A DNA stretch of 35,471 bases. Source: a virus. Made by a program: the position numbers and the translations under genes. The notes under the pieces were generated by a model. That model was not told the DNA's origin and made no database searches. It worked only from the letters and a program-made list of their open reading frames with translations. Shown here one piece after another: positions 13,241 to 27,736 of this stretch. The stretch lies in the UHGV virus genome UHGV-0047541. One strand, 5' to 3'. Within the stretch, counting starts at the first letter, position 1, and every line of letters starts with the position of its first letter.

Positions 13241-14395
13241 GGATCGCCGGAAAGGACCCGCCAGCCAGAGCGGGCCTAAATTCATCAACCAATCAGCTTA
13301 TAGCGGCCATCCCGTGCATTACGGTGTACACGCTCAATATTGAGGCATAGTGCACATCTGGCTTTTTTGGCACAGGAACACGGCAACATTCAGAAGCGCG
13401 AGGAATATTATTTATCCAGTCGATCACTTCGCTTAAATACCAGGCATTGCGTCCTTACGTAACTGACACTGCCTCCAATATTGAAGATGTAAGTTGATAA
13501 GACCTGATAAAAGTTTATATCCAAAATCAAGATAAGACTTATCACTTTAATAAATTAGCAAGAAAACAATACCTCTGATTTACCATGCGGAAATAACTAA
13601 TAGACATTCACTTTTCAGTTTATTATTTTCCAGCAGTACTATACCTTCAGTTAAACACCATTTTTTTACATGTTCAATTTTTATATAACTCATTCAGATT
13701 TATCACCACCAGATTGTGTTTCCACAGAGAATAGCCGGCTAACCTCTGTTATATCGTTGCTTATTTCATCACACGATAACGATATTATTTCCGTTACTGA
13801 TTACCTTAATAAAAATGGCATTTCGCATTGTTTTTACTTTCTGTCAACAGGGAATATAAGGTTTACCACACATAATCAAAGTATGATCACGGTACAGACC
13901 CAAAAAAGATCTGCTTATATAAACCACAGGCCAAATAATATCTGGACAAAACTGGTTATAAAAAAACATTTATCCGGAAACATACCCTTCTTCCGGAGCC
14001 ACTTTACTCTGTCCCGTACAGGCATCTTTAAATATGTTCTGGATGTAAACAGAAAACACTGCCAGTATTACTCAGTAAGAAACCACATTTTGCATTCACA
14101 ATTCATTATTCCGGTTTCTTCCACCATCGCACCGGAAAAGCGACTATGAGGGTAAACCTGCGTCCGTCAGCGCACTAAAACCCGGTGTGCATCGTTTTTG
14201 ATTATTCCCGCACACTCTCGCAGAAGGAGTTCCCCGTCGGGCTACGGTCTCTGTTAATACGGGAATACGGCGACGATACAGCGCATGATGTGTCAGGCTT
14301 GAATACCTTTATCCGTTAAAAAGGATATCAGTTAAGTTATCCCGTGCAGGGTATAAGCCATTATCAAGCCCACCCGTAGATAGGCTTTGTAATGG

Positions 14396-15803: not shown

Positions 15804-15891
15804 GACATCAACACTCCAACGGCCAGAAACCACGGCCACGCATCGTTGCCATTGAATGCGAGCAACGCTGCCATGAAAAAGCAAATCATGC

Positions 15892-16389
15892 TCATTGTTG
15901 CCCCCACAAACAGACTTCACGCTCAATCTCACGACGAGTCATCAGACCTTTCCATTGCTTACCGCCAGCGTATGTCCAACGCCGTAGCTGATCACATGCG
16001 CCTTTGATATCGCCCTGGTTTATTTTGCGAAGAAGCGTAGATGTTCTGAAATTGCCAGCGCCCACGTTGTAAACGAACGAGTAAAGAGCGCCGCGCATTG
16101 TTTCCGGTATATCAACTTTGATGTACGGGTTAATTTGTCTGGCGACGGTGGCGAGGTCTTTATTCAGGAGGGCTTTGCATTCTGCTTCGGTATACGTTTT
16201 ACCGAGCATGATGTCTTTTCCGGTGTGTCCGTGGCATACAGTCCATACACCAACAATATCTTTGTATGGTATGTAACTGACACCTTCCAGACCATCGTCA
16301 CCACTCGGACCAGTGATTAACACAGATGCTATAGCAATAGCTCCGCCACCAATAGCAACAGCAACGGCTTTTCGTAATGATGGAGGCAT
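15892..16389 (-). CDS. R: SAR endolysin (T4-lysozyme-like, phage 21 R-type)
   Basis: 165 aa, [30 protein letters not shown] domain, then [25 protein letters not shown] catalytic region; matches recalled R21. Confidence 0.9.
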
Positions 16390-16604
16390 TATTCACCTCT
16401 CGCAGCCTTTCTTCTGTCTTCTCTGATTTTGAAGTACAGATTTGTCAGATAAGTCAGGAAGCCCAGAACCAGACTCCCCAGTACACCAATCGCAGCCCAC
16501 TGTGACGGACTGACCTGATCAAGCCACTGTAAAAACCAGTAGCCAGCACTGCCTGCGGAGGTGCCGTAGGCAATGCCCGTTGAAATTTTGTCCATGGATT
16601 TCAT
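16389..16604 (-). CDS. S: pinholin S21 (71-aa form with dual-start MKSMDK)
   Basis: ORF 16389-16661; functional start [28 protein letters not shown]... matches recalled phage 21 S; stop overlaps R start (TAATG). Confidence 0.85.
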
Positions 16605-16704
16605 AGCCTCACCTCCGCGCAGAACGGATGGCGTAGTTATTATGTGCAGGCTTTCAGACACATCAATCAGAGCCTTAATTGATATATATGCTGGAGACGA
16701 TGCA

Positions 16705-16735
16705 ATATAAAAAGCTCGCCGTAGCGAGCTAATAA
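16705..16735 (-). terminator. intrinsic terminator downstream of the lipoprotein moron (minus strand)
   Basis: Hairpin AGCTCGC-CGTA-GCGAGCT at 16713-16730, followed on the minus strand by TTTTATATT. Confidence 0.5.
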
Positions 16736-16855
16736 AATGTATATCTCTGAAATTATGTTTATTTGTATTAGCTCAGACTTGACATCACAGATTTCGTATA
16801 TAGAACATCATCAAATCTGTCAGTTTGCTATGAATGAGATATAGTAATTGAAGAG

Positions 16856-17251
16856 CTAACCTCGCATGTCAAAGCCAGATTTCTGAAAATCTCTGTAGAC
16901 TTCCGGATTGTTGAAGGCCGGAAATTTGGCTTTATGAGCTGCGGACTTTATCGCTTCGCAATAGGCTTTATCACCGTTACTGGTAGATATTTTTAAAGCC
17001 GTGCCATCCTGAGAGAATTCCATATGCAACCTGCATTTTTTCCCTTTCCAGTTATGTGGCTCATCAAGTTTGGCATTAATTGCAGCTCTGATTCCCCGCG
17101 CTTGCGCCCCCCATTCATCCTGATCATCCCAGCGTCCTGAACTGCAACTACCTGTAGCAGTAGTTTTGTGGCAATCTGAAGGGTGTAAAGGTGTGCATCC
17201 CGCAACAAAGCCGACCCAAAAAGTCAGCATAACGATTTTCTTTAATCCCAC
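16856..17251 (-). CDS. lipoprotein with TolA C-terminal domain III-like fold (divergent paralog)
   Basis: 131 aa; signal peptide plus lipobox VAGC; C-terminal KKCRLHMEFSQDGTALKIS...AYCEAIKSAAHKAKFPAFNNPEVYRDFQ aligns with TolA domain III (two conserved Cys, P..EVY..F). Confidence 0.7.
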   Translation of the reverse strand: MGLKKIVMLTFWVGFVAGCTPLHPSDCHKTTATGSCSSGRWDDQDEWGAQARGIRAAINAKLDEPHNWKGKKCRLHMEFSQDGTALKISTSNGDKAYCEAIKSAAHKAKFPAFNNPEVYRDFQKSGFDMRG

Positions 17252-17372
17252 TTCTTGCTCCCCAATCCATTAAAATCTCAGCAATAGTAGTTGTTACGTC
17301 CGCCACTGGCTCAGTGCCGTAGTTGTGTCAGAACAAACCTAAGCCGAAATCTTTATTACAAAACAATAAATA

Positions 17373-17801
17373 TCAGGGTTTAAAATCCAGCACCCCATTT
17401 TGAAATACTTTATATACTTCCGGCGAAGGGGGGGCAGGTATATCAGCATTCTTTATCGCATTCATCGCTTCACGACATAAATTGGGGTCTCCACTTTCTC
17501 TTTTAACCTCCAGTAGAAGGCCATTCGGGGCCATATGCATTCTAAGCGTACACTCTTTTCCTGAATACTTACTCGCATCCCCGAACTGTTTTTCGATGGC
17601 GTTCTTGATTTGATGGGCATACTGACGGATATCTTCACTAACATCAGTAGTACGTTCAGATGAACTCACATACTGTGTTTCTGTTGATTTATCGGAGTAA
17701 TATGATGCCCGGTCGTAATAATTTGTCGATACAGCATCAGTGCACCCGATAATAATCCCACTAATAATCAACGTAAGAATTGATGCGCTACGAAAACCCA
17801 T
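17373..17801 (-). CDS. lipoprotein with TolA C-terminal domain III homology
   Basis: 142 aa; lipobox IIGC; C-terminal IKNAIEKQFGDASKYSGKECTLRMHMAPNGLLLEVKRESGDPNLCREAMNAIKNADIPAPPSPEVYKVFQNGVLDFKP closely parallels recalled E. coli TolA C-terminus (...IKSAIESKF..AGKTCTLRIKLAPDGMLLDIKPEGGDPALCQAA...PKPPSQAVYEVFKNAPLDFKP). Confidence 0.8.
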   Translation of the reverse strand: MGFRSASILTLIISGIIIGCTDAVSTNYYDRASYYSDKSTETQYVSSSERTTDVSEDIRQYAHQIKNAIEKQFGDASKYSGKECTLRMHMAPNGLLLEVKRESGDPNLCREAMNAIKNADIPAPPSPEVYKVFQNGVLDFKP

Positions 17802-17880
17802 TTTTCCTCACAATATGTCATATAGTAATGGATTATATATACCGTCGTTTTGGACGCTCAAACAGCGAATCAGATCAAAT
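17802..17880 (-). promoter_or_regulatory. putative sigma70 promoter and RBS for lipoprotein gene
   Basis: Minus strand reads TTGAGC-(18 bp)-TATAAT about 25 bp upstream of GAGGAAAA-ATG. Confidence 0.35.
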
Positions 17881-18780
17881 AAAACGCACATTTGTTAACA
17901 TTTACACAAAGTCTGCGTGGGATATTCTGAAAGAATATCCATAATGTGGAGAGAATCTATTGAAGTGCATGGTGCCGGGTGCCTCCCGGTGAACAAAACG
18001 TTCGTGATACCTGTCGGCGACAGAAAAGGTTAATGGTATCACCCCACCGCACAGGGGGATTCACCATGCAGGAGTTTTCTTAGCAAACTCTCTGCGCGCC
18101 CGGCAATTCCCAACCACATAAAATGCGGAGTTTGTAGCATTTATGCATATAACTCGCAGGAATTATCTTAAAAAACTGATGTCGATCCGGATTAAAAAGA
18201 AGCAGGTCATCATCAGATGACTGGAAAAAAGGAAAACAAAAAATACTCATCGTACAGTTTTGATTGCAGGGATGAGCCTGCTATGCACAATATACAGAAT
18301 ATAAGCAAGATAAAAATATGCAGGCATATTATTTCGGATTTTGTTATTAACACAACCTTTTTAATAATCATTTGGCATACAATAAACCAGCCCAAAAAGA
18401 ACCGCCTAAACAGGCGGTTGGTCAATACAAAGGATGCTTCGTCTTTATTATAGTAATCTGAGGCGTCGGCCCCCCCGAAGTATTCCGCACTGCATGGATA
18501 CTGTGGTTTCCCGCTAAATCACTATGTAAACCACCCTCGCACTGAGGAACATCTTTTTAGTGTTATTTACAACACCGGGATAATGCATCATCGGCCCTGC
18601 CAGGAAATACAAAATCTCCACCGATAATGCACCATTCTGCTGCCGTAAAAAGATCAGCACTGAGGCTACACCCGGCCTCAAATAATAGCCAGAGAACAGA
18701 ATGCTTTTTCAAAACAACCAGCTCCCACGTAGTAAAAAAATACGCCAGTGCCGCAATACAATAAGGCTTGTTTCAAATGC

Positions 18781-18855
<75 letters not shown>

Positions 18856-18858
18856 ATA

Positions 18859-18934
<76 letters not shown>

Positions 18935-18936
18935 AC

Positions 18937-19013
18937 TGGACCGCCACCGGAGACTCGAACCTCGCACACTCAACTTAAAGGGTTGATGCTCTTCCCTGAT
19001 GAGCTAGTGGCGG
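18937..19013 (-). tRNA. atypical tRNA-like gene (anticodon loop CCUUUAA, putative UUU/Lys, C at position 33; possible pseudo-tRNA)
   Basis: 77 nt with 7-bp acceptor stem CCGCCAC/GTGGCGG, D and anticodon stems, TTCGAGT T-loop, encoded CCA; non-canonical C33 and T-stem mismatch. Confidence 0.5.
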
Positions 19014-19014
19014 T

Positions 19015-19090
19015 TGGTGGCCCTTGCTGGATTTGAACCAGCGACCTGGCGATTATGAGTCGCTCGCTCTCACCACTGAGCTAAAGGGCC
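19015..19090 (-). tRNA. tRNA with CAU anticodon (ileX/ileZ-like tRNA-Ile2, formally Met)
   Basis: 76 nt, GGCCCTTTAGCTCAGTGGTGAGAGCGAGCGACTCATAATCGCCAGGTCGCTGGTTCAAATCCAGCAAGGGCCACCA; close to recalled E. coli ileX. Confidence 0.8.
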
Positions 19091-19663
19091 AAGCGCAGAA
19101 TAGTAACGTTACGAAATCAATGTTGCAAGCGTTCAAAAATCCACTGGTAAAAAATTACCCTTAACTCCTCCACCAGCGCATTCACCATGTTTATCCGAGA
19201 TAAGTGGCACAAAAAAACCGCTCAATGGCGGGTTTAAGCTGTGTGACGAAGCAACCACTCTTAACAGCATAACCAATTTTTTACGTACGTAAACCACTAA
19301 ATGATATTTGCGAGAATGCTACCGAGTATTGAAAACACCACTACAAATACATAAGCAAATCTCAACAAATAACTAACAAATAATTTCCAGTGTTATTTTT
19401 AGTCGATTTAAATTGAATATTCAAATTATAGAGCACTTATAAATAACATCCGTTAATATAAATTAACTAATAGATTTATTTTTATTCAGCCAAGAGCCAT
19501 GAATAGGATTCGATAGAAAAAAGTTCAGATAAAAATAGAGATCTACTTCACAAATCAAACGAGAAACCAAAACTTACATCTTGAAATAATCACATTGATT
19601 AGATGAATATTTATCGTGCAGTGACATCATTTTTTAATAATAGTTCAAAAAAAAGGACTCACG

Positions 19664-20746
19664 ATGAAAAAATTAACAGTGGCAATTTCTGCTGTAGCTG
19701 CATCAGTACTGATGGCGATGTCTGCTCAGGCAGCTGAAATTTATAATAAAGACAGTAACAAGCTGGATCTGTACGGGAAAGTTAATGCTAAGCACTACTT
19801 CTCCTCTAATGATGCAGATGATGGCGATAAGACCTATGCCCGTCTTGGCTTCAAAGGTGAAACCCAAATCAACGATCAACTGACTGGTTTCGGTCAGTGG
19901 GAATATGAATTCAAAGGCAACCGCGCTGAATCTCAAGGTTCCTCCAAAGATAAAACCCGTCTTGCCTTCGCTGGCCTGAAATTCGGTGACTACGGCTCCA
20001 TCGATTATGGCCGTAACTACGGTGTAGCATACGATATTGGTGCATGGACCGACGTTCTGCCAGAATTCGGTGGCGATACCTGGACCCAAACAGATGTATT
20101 CATGACTGGTCGCACCACAGGTGTTGCAACATACCGTAACAAAGACTTCTTTGGCCTGGTAGATGGTCTGAACTTTGCTGCTCAGTATCAGGGTAAAAAT
20201 GACCGCACTGACGTAACTCAAGCTAATGGTGATGGTTTCGGTTTCTCCACTACTTATGAGTATGAAGGATTCGGCGTAGGTGCAACCTATGCTAAATCTG
20301 ACCGCACTAATAATCAGGTTATCTACGGTAACAACAGCCTGAATGCATCTGGTCAAAATGCTGAAGTATGGGCAGCTGGTCTGAAATATGATGCGAACAA
20401 CATCTATCTGGCTACTACCTATTCTGAAACCCAAAACATGACTGTTTTTGGTAAAAACCATATTGCCAACAAAGCACAAAACTTCGAAGTAGTTGCACAA
20501 TATCAGTTCGACTTCGGTCTGCGTCCGTCCGTTGCTTATCTACAATCTAAAGGAAAAGACTTGGGTGCTTGGGGTGATCAGGACCTGGTTGAATATATTG
20601 ATGTAGGTGCAACCTATTACTTCAACAAAAATATGTCCACTTTTGTTGACTACAAAATCAACCTGATTGATAAGAGCGATTTCACGAAAGTATCTGGCGT
20701 TGCTACCGATGATATCGTTGCTGTAGGTATGGTTTACCAGTTCTAA
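19664..20746 (+). CDS. OmpC/OmpF-family general porin (NmpC/Lc-like lysogenic-conversion porin)
   Basis: 360 aa, signal peptide [39 protein letters not shown]..., C-terminal MVYQF; AT-rich upstream region. Confidence 0.9.
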
Positions 20747-20934: not shown

Positions 20935-21333
20935 TTAATTAGAGTTATTAATAACGATATCCATCTCTAACCGGATATCTAATGCCATTAACATCCCTTC
21001 AATTATGCCCTCAGCCTTCTGTAACCTTTTCCCGATATAACCATCAGAGCAGCAATGCTTACCTGCCAGTGACATGAATGTCATACCGACTACATAATAA
21101 TCTACTAATAAATCGTGCAAATCGCTGTTGTTCTTTTTCAGACGGGCCATGCACCCGCAAATGATCATCGCGTCATCGTCACAACATTGCAGGCGAGATT
21201 TTACTTTTGAAGGAATTAATCCCTTAAAACCGGCGGCAATGGACGACCAGGTCACATCTTCATGATTATTAGCCGCCCACGCTCCCCAACGTTCAAGAAC
21301 CATCTGAATATCACGCATCAACTTACTCCACAA
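20935..21333 (-). CDS. late-gene antiterminator Q (QuuD/phage-82 type)
   Basis: 132 aa, ...[34 protein letters not shown]...CGCMARLKK...; position immediately upstream of the late region. Confidence 0.8.
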
Positions 21334-26588: not shown

Positions 26589-27736
26589 TTGCGCCCCCTT
26601 ACCTCTGAAGAGTTCAGCGACGAATGAATAAGACGGGCAAGAAATGCCGCATCGTTAATTCGGTCATACAGACTTACAGCCAGCGGTGATTCAGCTTTTT
26701 CCAGCATGGGATAAAGCTGCTGCAACCAGACCTGATGAATTGATGAAATGTAGGAATAGAGAACGCTGGCGTTATGTGCAACGTCGCTCGGTACAGAGGG
26801 CTTTGAAAGCTGTTTCTCCATCTGGTTAAAGGCATTGATGTATGCCTCTTTGAACTGGGCAGCACGTTTACCCGTGAAACCCATAGCAAGAAACGCAAAA
26901 CCGTCGCGTGTGATTTGGTAGCAAGGAAGTTTGCGACCTGTGCAATCAGTGTAATCACTCACCGAAAAATTGCGGGCAGTGAATGATGCTGAGCATTCAA
27001 GCGTGCGGATCTTTTTCAGTACATCGTCATGACGTTTAGAGAAGAAGTCAGCAACAGCCAAAGAAGATGTAACAGCCTGACCATCAACGATGGCAATTTC
27101 AGGTTGAGAGATGGTTGGGAGAGTAGTCATGGTGACAGCCCCGGTAGTCAGTTTTTTAGAAAACTCACCACATGGGACGCCAATCACAGAGGTGGTGAGA
27201 CGTACAGGGTTGGCGTTACCGGAGACTACCGAACCCGGCCCGACCGAAGTCGGCCCTGTACGCCCCACCATAATTTGGGCGTAGCAATGCTCATGACACG
27301 AAAAAACCGCATGAGCGCGGTTATGCTCAGTAATCAATTTCAGGACGCCAATCCCGGCACCCGCTTTATAAGGTGCCTGAACAGTGTAACGTCCCGGAAT
27401 GGCAGAATCAATGTGCTGGTGGTCCTTCACACTCAACAAAATCACGCCTGAATTTCCACAAAGGACTAAAGCACTCATGCGGGTAGTCTTTGCGAAGATA
27501 GATAACGCGCTGTGTTTCTGGCTCCCAACGAATAACATGGACATAAAGCCCTCTTCCGTCACGAAACCAGCGGTTAAGTTCCTGCACAACTCGCCCCCCA
27601 CAGTCAGGTAAAGTTCTCTGTGGTTACTTACAGCCAGGTGATTTGGTAATCTGCATTCATGCCGTAACAACAGGTGTTCAGCGACGCTGACCACCTGCTG
27701 TTGCGACAAACGGTTATTTGCCGTTAAACTGTTCAT
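26585..27736 (-). CDS. Rha-domain regulatory protein with about 200-aa N-terminal extension of unknown function
   Basis: 383 aa; residues about 205-300 IAIVDGQAVTSSLAVADFFSKRHDDVLKKIRTLE...YQITRDGFAFLAMGFTGKRAAQFKEAYINAFNQME are Rha-like; N-terminal 200 aa open in the same frame. Confidence 0.6.
   Translation of the reverse strand: MNSLTANNRLSQQQVVSVAEHLLLRHECRLPNHLAVSNHRELYLTVGGELCRNLTAGFVTEEGFMSMLFVGSQKHSALSIFAKTTRMSALVLCGNSGVILLSVKDHQHIDSAIPGRYTVQAPYKAGAGIGVLKLITEHNRAHAVFSCHEHCYAQIMVGRTGPTSVGPGSVVSGNANPVRLTTSVIGVPCGEFSKKLTTGAVTMTTLPTISQPEIAIVDGQAVTSSLAVADFFSKRHDDVLKKIRTLECSASFTARNFSVSDYTDCTGRKLPCYQITRDGFAFLAMGFTGKRAAQFKEAYINAFNQMEKQLSKPSVPSDVAHNASVLYSYISSIHQVWLQQLYPMLEKAESPLAVSLYDRINDAAFLARLIHSSLNSSEVRGRK

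Follow-up and report, generated by a model that had tools for sequence, protein, structure and literature searches.

A laterally exchanged late-operon cassette with two predicted TolA-III lipoproteins in the lambdoid prophage UHGV-0047541

The virus genome UHGV-0047541, a DNA of 35,471 nucleotides that we call the window, is a lambdoid (lambda-like) prophage with its late genes on the minus strand. Downstream of the transfer RNA (tRNA) genes and ahead of the lysis genes S, R and Rz lies a region (16662–18780) with two genes for small predicted lipoproteins, named here lpp1 and lpp2. Our comparisons support the reading of positions 16616–18393 (minus strand) as an accessory cassette that is exchanged horizontally, a moron as Hendrix used the term, in a variable slot of the lambdoid late operon. 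The two proteins appear to be captured copies of domain III of TolA (TolA-III), in which the membrane anchor and the long helical domain have given way to a lipoprotein signal and a flexible linker. The explanation that we find best, and that we hold with moderate confidence, is that of an exchanged moron cassette for TolA-III decoy lipoproteins, probably transcribed in two ways.

Order and exchange of the cassette

On the minus strand the cassette holds an AT-rich spacer, the gene for the small RNA (sRNA) STnc100, a sigma-70-like promoter candidate, lpp1, lpp2 and a strong intrinsic terminator:

18393..18100, minus strand: AT-rich spacer (34.6% GC); open reading frames (ORFs) without Pfam or PHROG match
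18099..17913, minus strand: STnc100 sRNA gene (Rfam RF02076; 87.3 bits, gathering score 47)
17861..17832, minus strand: sigma-70-like promoter candidate TTGAGC-18-TATAAT, matching the consensus at 10/12 positions
17809..17806, minus strand: Shine–Dalgarno motif GAGG of lpp1, read from the sequence 4 nt before the ATG at 17801
17801..17373, minus strand: lpp1, predicted lipoprotein of 142 amino acids (aa) (PF06519, E 3e-25)
17251..16856, minus strand: lpp2, predicted lipoprotein of 131 aa; starts with GTG, preceded by GGAG at a distance of 7 nt (PF06519, E 1.3e-14)
16730..16713 (element 16704..16730), minus strand: intrinsic terminator that follows lpp2, 100 nt ahead of the start codon of S

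To delimit this unit we used the Rac-like phage vB_EcoS-683R6, which has no lpp genes and carries 378 bp where the window has 1778 bp (16616–18393). Since homology to 683R6 covers R and S on one side (15889–16615) and the tRNA/leader module on the other (18394–18939), the added DNA is 16616–18393. This result shifts the boundaries given in an earlier note on this DNA (16662–18780). The unit is thus present in some related phages and absent from others, with a sharp boundary. Comparison with related prophages also established that the slot is variable. The backbone closest to that of the window, with QuuD and the porin, has a SASA (sialate) esterase in this place, and other phages have nothing, or stx followed by STnc100 (PMC12370729).

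Segments of the cassette are 96–100% identical to those of three other carriers, save for the lpp1–lpp2 spacer with its 29-bp indel, whereas the neighboring S genes of these carriers are only 83–86% identical. As a unit, the cassette is 96–99% identical across carrier prophages. Such a contrast between the cassette and S is the mark of a recent lateral transfer into backbones that had already diverged. In 80 prophage contigs from IMG/VR the upstream breakpoint lies at 18469 (Rac type), 18090 (mEp460 type) or 17993, and the first two positions recur. Rac-type carriers include the AT-rich spacer (18100–18393) in the cassette; mEp460-type carriers lack it. Q proteins of different families precede the cassette or its homologue, namely PF06530 in the window, DUF1133 in Rac-like prophages and PF03589 in loci L004–L007. 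The latter loci contain only an lpp1 homologue of 69% identity, without STnc100 or lpp2, and this solitary gene sits between the tRNAs and a nanS-p esterase gene. At least 80% of the region occurs in approximately 450 of 5426 complete E. coli genomes, none of which matches the copy in the window above ~98% over at least 80% of the region.

The earlier note had described the locus as an autonomous low-GC moron that is AT-richer than the flanking phage backbone. A scan of GC content did reveal a deviation. The GC content of 16662–18780 is 41.6%, compared to 50.1% for the whole window, 49.5% for S-R-Rz and 55.4% for the structural genes, which places this region within the lowest 3% of 2119-bp windows. 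GC at third codon positions amounts to 36% and 42% in the lpp genes, and to 43–52% in S, R and Rz. The upstream neighbors as far as Q are equally low: GC is 32% in the spacer between the tRNAs and the porin gene (19091–19663), 43.7% in the porin gene itself and 42.4% in Q. The low-GC trough is therefore the entire Q-to-S interval (~16.6–21.3 kb), interrupted only by the tRNAs. The earlier description thus stands for the most part, and so does the core of its moron reading; the autonomy of the unit was overstated, and the trough is wider than the locus.

Two further observations concern the variability of the cassette itself. The lpp1–lpp2 spacer of the window (17252–17372) lacks 29 bp that are present in all other carriers examined. 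Insertion sequences (IS) have entered the cassette repeatedly, with IS1, IS3 and IS5 annotated by RefSeq in carriers H1–H3, H17 and H18. In locus L085 the −35 and −10 hexamers are split apart, ~30 nt ahead of lpp1, by an IS-like junction that falls right between them and that we take to resemble an IS1 end.

Predicted lipoproteins with a TolA domain III

Both proteins score above the PF06519 threshold of 25 bits (lpp1: 88.7, lpp2: 54.6), and both start with a predicted signal peptide whose end is a lipobox of the form [LVI][ASTVI][GAS]C, which is pattern evidence only. In lpp1 the lipobox IIG/C with Cys20 and a threonine at +2 is followed by a disordered linker (residues 21–49) and by TolA domain III (residues 55–142). 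This domain is 59–60% identical to residues 334–421 of E. coli TolA, through the common C-terminal strand LDFKP, and keeps the disulphide cysteines of TolA-III. An AlphaFold2 (AF2) model of lpp1 gives predicted local distance difference test (pLDDT) values of 78–92 for the domain and a disordered linker. By Foldseek this model aligns to 2x9a_B with a template modeling (TM) score of 0.95 and a root-mean-square deviation of 0.7 Å over 88 columns. It has the fold of E. coli TolA domain III (PDB 1TOL, 2X9A, 3QDR, 1S62) and superposes on TolA-III from complexes with phage g3p and with colicin A, 2x9a being the complex with g3p of phage If1. The second protein, lpp2, contains the lipobox VAG/C with Cys19 and also a threonine at +2, followed by a diverged TolA domain III (E 5e-9 to TolA in the PDB). 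It is a diverged paralogue with 28% identity to lpp1.

Despite this resemblance, neither protein is TolA proper. E. coli TolA has an N-terminal transmembrane helix and a domain II, whereas the lpp proteins lack both, are predicted to be lipid-anchored and match model positions 292–386 only. Both also fail the full-length TolA equivalog model NF007065 (score 112, cut-off 213), and a genuine tolQRA-tolB locus (L098) looks unlike the lpp locus. Since the membrane helix and domain II are missing and the NF007065 cut-off is not reached, the RefSeq name "cell envelope integrity protein TolA" is wrong for these proteins. With neither helix nor domain II, coupling to TolQR is also impossible. The nearest database protein to lpp1 of the window is 94% identical. 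As to the origin of the domain, no full-length TolA exceeds ~60% identity to lpp1, and hence no donor can be named. One candidate from the literature was rejected: EDL933_2012, at first taken for a TolA-like gene of a prophage with 32-fold induction by ciprofloxacin (PMC11125564), is a tail fibre protein according to the supplement.

Are these genes maintained? Intact copies of lpp1 are found in 82 of 85 loci and of lpp2 in 81; among the other four, three lpp2 copies are cut by a contig end and one (L062) lacks the lpp2 start. The ratio of nonsynonymous to synonymous substitution rates (dN/dS) is 0.20 for the lpp1 domain, measured against the 69%-identical homologue, and 0.08 for lpp2, measured between phage and plasmid copies. 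The lipobox cysteine is invariant across homologues, as is the core of the fold. The dN/dS values show that lpp1 and lpp2 are under purifying selection. These data also bear on the idea that both genes are decaying hitch-hikers without current function. Frameshifted lpp1 variants of 157–158 aa and the IS insertions seen in several genomes would fit such decay. With low dN/dS across diverged copies, intact ORFs in nearly all loci, and both cysteines and the fold core invariant, we consider this explanation very improbable. The frameshifted variant (L008 2979–3455, L009, L010; P0009–P0018), in which the last two secondary-structure elements are replaced, represents a minority lineage.

Relatives of the two proteins occur well beyond lambdoid prophages. 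More than 600 Escherichia/Shigella plasmids carry an lpp2-like gene (87.6% nucleotide identity) directly downstream of a mobA-relaxase pair; those typed examples that were inspected belong to the IncI complex (IncI1/B/O and IncK2/Z). Three plasmid copies are located as follows:

L003, 5004–5435: lpp2-like gene
L013, 6005–6400: lpp2-like gene
L014, 6004–6435: lpp2-like gene

An exhaustive HMMER search returned 369 clusters. Among the best 146 of these, 83 are at most 170 aa long, and at least 45 distinct 50%-identity clusters of such short TolA-III proteins carry a lipobox. The named members are from Serratia, Kosakonia, Franconibacter and Dryocola, every one of them labeled TolA. For genomic context in this wider family we obtained one Kosakonia locus, and two Serratia loci that were returned proved to be the genuine tolQRA-tolB operon. 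In Kosakonia pseudosacchari (L095 5001–5423) a TolA-III lipoprotein of 140 aa is encoded at the end of a prophage, with a tail-fibre assembly gene on one side and a dinI-like gene on the other. This site is a moron position other than the Q-to-S slot.

Transcription and surroundings of the cassette

The signal that ends the cassette is robust and strong. A 7-bp stem followed by the U-tract UUUUUAUAUU folds with −13 kcal/mol (z −4.06), none of 200 shuffled sequences folds as well, and the element is identical in 80 homologous loci. The cassette thus has a factor-independent terminator of its own, located after lpp2 and before S, just as the earlier note had proposed. The promoter and the ribosome-binding site that it had placed ahead of lpp1 were also located, the former as a consensus match that carries a chance of ~4%. 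In simulations, a site with at least 10/12 matches arises by chance in 3.5–4% of 150-nt stretches of similar composition. The surrounding 7 kb contain 13 promoter-like sites, compared to 14.3 expected from shuffles, and hence show no enrichment. Among the 85 homologous loci the −10 hexamer is invariant. The −35 hexamer is unchanged in 82 of them, carries a point mutation in two and is displaced by the IS-like junction in one. This conservation is uninformative, because the 85 carriers hardly differ from one another in this stretch; the flanking sequence is conserved as strongly as the hexamers. Placement and orientation of the candidate lend modest support to the idea that the lpp genes may have a promoter of their own.

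The conclusion drawn earlier, that expression is independent of Q-driven late transcription, is overstated, because the cassette, as a part of the late operon ahead of S, must be crossed by Q-modified polymerase. This location raises the possibility that the lpp genes are late-operon passengers that, like stx2, owe practically all their transcription to Q-modified polymerase coming from pR' once the prophage is induced, and that they have a role in lytic growth. They might, for example, titrate TolB and loosen the Tol-Pal link, which could assist outer-membrane disruption or vesicle release at lysis, or block exploitation of the dying cell by progeny or competitors. Such a role would be consistent with the position of the cassette immediately upstream of S on the same strand, with an STnc100 copy that has no terminator, with the weak promoter support, with a diverged homologue that has no promoter-like site ahead of it, and with the hypervesiculation and outer-membrane instability that result from tol-pal defects (PMC7391070). 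A purely Q-driven transcript would, however, have no use for a strong terminator between lpp2 and S, which makes sense as a shield against transcription in the lysogen. Homologues are also found away from any lysis operon, on conjugative plasmids and at the end of a prophage, and the phage already has a full S-R-Rz lysis set. We judge the passenger explanation to be unlikely, if still the strongest of the competing accounts.

STnc100 opens a further alternative. This prophage sRNA is related to PasD (bioRxiv 10.64898/2026.05.13.724894) and has its place between Q and S in Stx phages as well as in other lambdoid phages; one example lies 75 nt downstream of stx2 (bioRxiv 10.64898/2026.05.13.724894; PMC12370729). 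The match in the window is full-length (model positions 1–206), with the consensus 3' GC-rich terminator stem and U-tail replaced by AU-rich GGAUAUUC..GAAUAUCC and then CACGCAG. In the sequence that follows (17915–17868) no significant hairpin or terminator was detected (z −0.29). STnc100 accompanies both lpp genes in L001, L002 and L008, and is absent from L005, L006 and L012. It is conceivable that STnc100 and the lpp genes form a single unit, in which STnc100 is the 5' leader of the lpp1-lpp2 mRNA or the source of a processed sRNA, and TTGAGC-18-TATAAT is incidental or a minor internal promoter. This arrangement would agree with the co-inheritance of STnc100 and the lpp genes in both carrier types, with the missing consensus terminator, U-tail and downstream hairpin, and with the conservation of the 120 nt from STnc100 to the ATG (100% and 95%). 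It conflicts with three observations: no sigma-70-like site of at least 9/12 matches occurs on the same strand within ~200 nt upstream of STnc100; the two carrier types diverge upstream of 18090; and diverged lpp1 homologues as well as plasmid lpp2 copies exist without STnc100. Taken together, we regard a single unit as improbable.

The features around the cassette are the following:

21333..20935, minus strand: Q gene, QuuD type (PF06530, Pfam)
19664..20746, plus strand: gene for an OmpC/NmpC/Lc-like porin of 360 aa, between Q and the tRNAs
19090..18781, minus strand: four tRNA genes (Met, Lys, Thr, Gly)
~18720..18420, minus strand: conserved structured non-coding leader of ~300 nt, directly 3' of tRNA-Gly
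18419..18400, minus strand: intrinsic terminator closing the leader module (8-bp stem AACCGCC..GGCGGTT, then CTTTTT)
16389..16604, minus strand: holin gene S, P21 type (PF04971, E 1.8e-35), part of the backbone outside the cassette

The kilobase upstream of lpp1 (17802–18780) had been described as devoid of a convincing gene, and as either a decayed remnant or a regulatory/sRNA region. We can confirm that protein genes are lacking: the ORFs of 49–78 aa in this stretch have no Pfam or PHROG match, and homologues of 18420–18780 differ by non-triplet indels and by substitutions without 3-base periodicity. Protein-coding candidates were rejected on these grounds. The stretch is not empty, since it contains STnc100, a terminator and a structured leader. 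Hence the sRNA guess was right in the case of STnc100, and the remnant reading fails in part. The leader is 79–88% identical to two copies in SerU-LTIIb, both of which directly follow tRNA-Gly, and to one in vB_EcoS-683R6. RNAalifold predicts 84 pairs, 12 of them with compensatory changes, from an alignment of only four sequences. An Rfam search with 18420–18720 gave chance-level matches only. The terminator behind the leader folds with −12.4 kcal/mol (z −2.84) and marks where the cassette begins on its upstream side. By these comparisons, 18394–18780 belongs to a tRNA/late-leader module with its own terminator, and not to the cassette. Some motifs of the leader resemble STnc100 (CCUCAGUGCGAGGG and, in relatives, UUCGGGAGGCACCCGAC), and the leader may be an undescribed prophage RNA of the Pas/STnc100 type or a late-leader RNA.

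The start of S can be assigned to the ATG at 16604, because the PF04971 match spans residues 24–86 of the 90-aa ORF. As to the position of pR', the interval from Q to the porin gene yielded no convincing sigma-70 match. The porin gene opposes the late operon, so late transcription would have to cross it antisense; in related prophages the equivalent gene beside quuD is labeled ompC by RefSeq. Downstream of the lysis region, an AT-rich island (13501–14000, 33% GC) holds a plus-strand ORF of 159 aa (13670–14149) that may be another accessory gene. In the early region the minus strand has Rfam matches to C4 antisense RNA (27188–27275, 82 bits) and, next to it, to isrK (27300–27376, 59 bits), a pair that makes up an immunity/antirepressor RNA module of the P1/P7 or Gifsy-1 type.

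A possible receptor decoy

How may such lipoproteins act? Threonine at +2 predicts that both are tethered to the inner face of the outer membrane. At this site the domains would bind ligands that dock on the tip of host TolA, that is, the translocation domains of group A colicins and the N1 domain of g3p (pIII). By trapping these ligands close to the outer membrane, the lipoproteins would confer on the lysogen a tolerance to group A colicins and filamentous phages. On TolA-III, strand β3 is the binding site of g3p N1 and of the TolB N-terminus, and strand β2 that of colicin A (review PMC7391070). Since TolA-III is the docking site for g3p N1 and colicin A, a tethered copy should capture such ligands and confer tolerance.

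Free TolA-III as a periplasmic competitor has a precedent. Levengood-Freyermuth, Click and Webster reportedly found in 1993 that recombinant soluble TolA-III in the periplasm renders E. coli tolerant to group A colicins, and leaky. That protein was artificial, overexpressed and soluble, whereas the lpp domains are natural, diverged, predicted to be lipid-anchored and carried by mobile elements. Colicins and g3p bind TolA-III with micromolar or better affinities. The affinity of TolB for the same domain is lower (40–200 μM, PMC7391070), and with this gap a decoy could act without crippling Tol-Pal.

As for expression of the proposed decoys, transcription would be dual. In the lysogen a weak constitutive transcript would run from the local promoter to the terminator at 16730–16713, which would shield the holin gene and keep it silent. 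After induction, Q-modified polymerase would read through the entire cassette to S.

Several points weigh against the decoy explanation in this form. Low GC does not set the cassette apart. The promoter candidate is weak, a single 10/12 match with an 18-bp spacer and a chance of ~4%, and upstream of the diverged 69%-identical lpp1 homologue, in a region that is not homologous to that of the window, no comparable promoter-like site was found. Given that the STnc100 copy has no terminator, the lpp genes could be transcribed from further upstream or from pR' only. In lpp2 the β3 strand has diverged strongly (SGFDMRG, compared to APLDFKP). Both proteins belong to PHROG 5772 of "unknown function", and neither matches a defense model of PADLOC-DB v2 up to E 0.1. 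The literature searched, including by accession and product name, contained no functional study and no binding or phenotype data for any family member, and no transcript data for the cassette. Finally, a TolA-III decoy could also titrate TolB and thereby harm the host.

Comparison with known systems helps to place the cassette. Morons are said to have been defined by Juhala, Hendrix et al. in 2000 on phages HK97 and HK022. Like the classical lambdoid morons (bor and lom of lambda; HK97/HK022), the cassette is an extra unit in some relatives, deviates in composition, has a promoter-like site and a terminator, and is located in the late operon. The lpp products resemble lambda Bor in being predicted envelope lipoproteins. 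Unlike classical morons, the cassette also contains an sRNA gene, its low GC spans the whole Q-to-S interval, and expression in the lysogen is only predicted here. The corresponding slot of Stx and related phages (Q, pR', tRNAs, stx, STnc100, nanS-p esterase, S) shares the order of tRNA array, cargo and S, as well as STnc100 in the same interval. The cargo differs, with two TolA-III lipoproteins in place of a toxin or esterase, and in the window STnc100 stands upstream of the cargo and lacks its terminator.

A functional parallel may be drawn to Cor (phi80/N15/HK022) and Llp (T5), small outer-membrane lipoproteins of phages that act on FhuA and block entry. Protection would in each case come from interference with a periplasm-facing import step, which for the lpp proteins is proposed. 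There is no sequence relationship, since above threshold Pfam reports only TolA and TonB_2 for the lpp proteins, and the proposed mode is mimicry of a receptor domain as opposed to plugging of a receptor.

The plasmid-borne relatives add to this picture. IncI pili are the receptor of the filamentous phage If1, and bacteria with such plasmids encounter filamentous phages that are specific for pili. The plasmid location fits the decoy idea because If1, which uses these pili, has a g3p that binds TolA (PDB 2x9a). We tentatively raise a broader possibility, on which we place less confidence than on the decoy explanation for the cassette itself. Lipid-anchored stand-alone TolA-III may constitute a widespread, unrecognized class of receptor decoys on mobile elements (lambdoid prophages, plasmids, Kosakonia prophage ends). 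In such a class, a host import hub would have been copied and tethered so as to intercept group A colicins and pIII, with the two paralogues of the cassette covering different ligands.

In its architecture the cassette is an ordinary moron in a well-known variable slot, and the cargo is the more interesting part. The analysis also places a copy of STnc100 in a defined transcriptional context. Some 8% of complete E. coli genomes and hundreds of plasmids carry members of the lpp family, for which "TolA" is the routine mis-annotation. The testable idea that emerges is that mobile elements shield their hosts by supplying a further copy of the very receptor domain on which colicins and filamentous phages depend. 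If true, prophage- and plasmid-borne protection would gain a decoy mechanism, with a bearing on the ecology of colicins in the gut.

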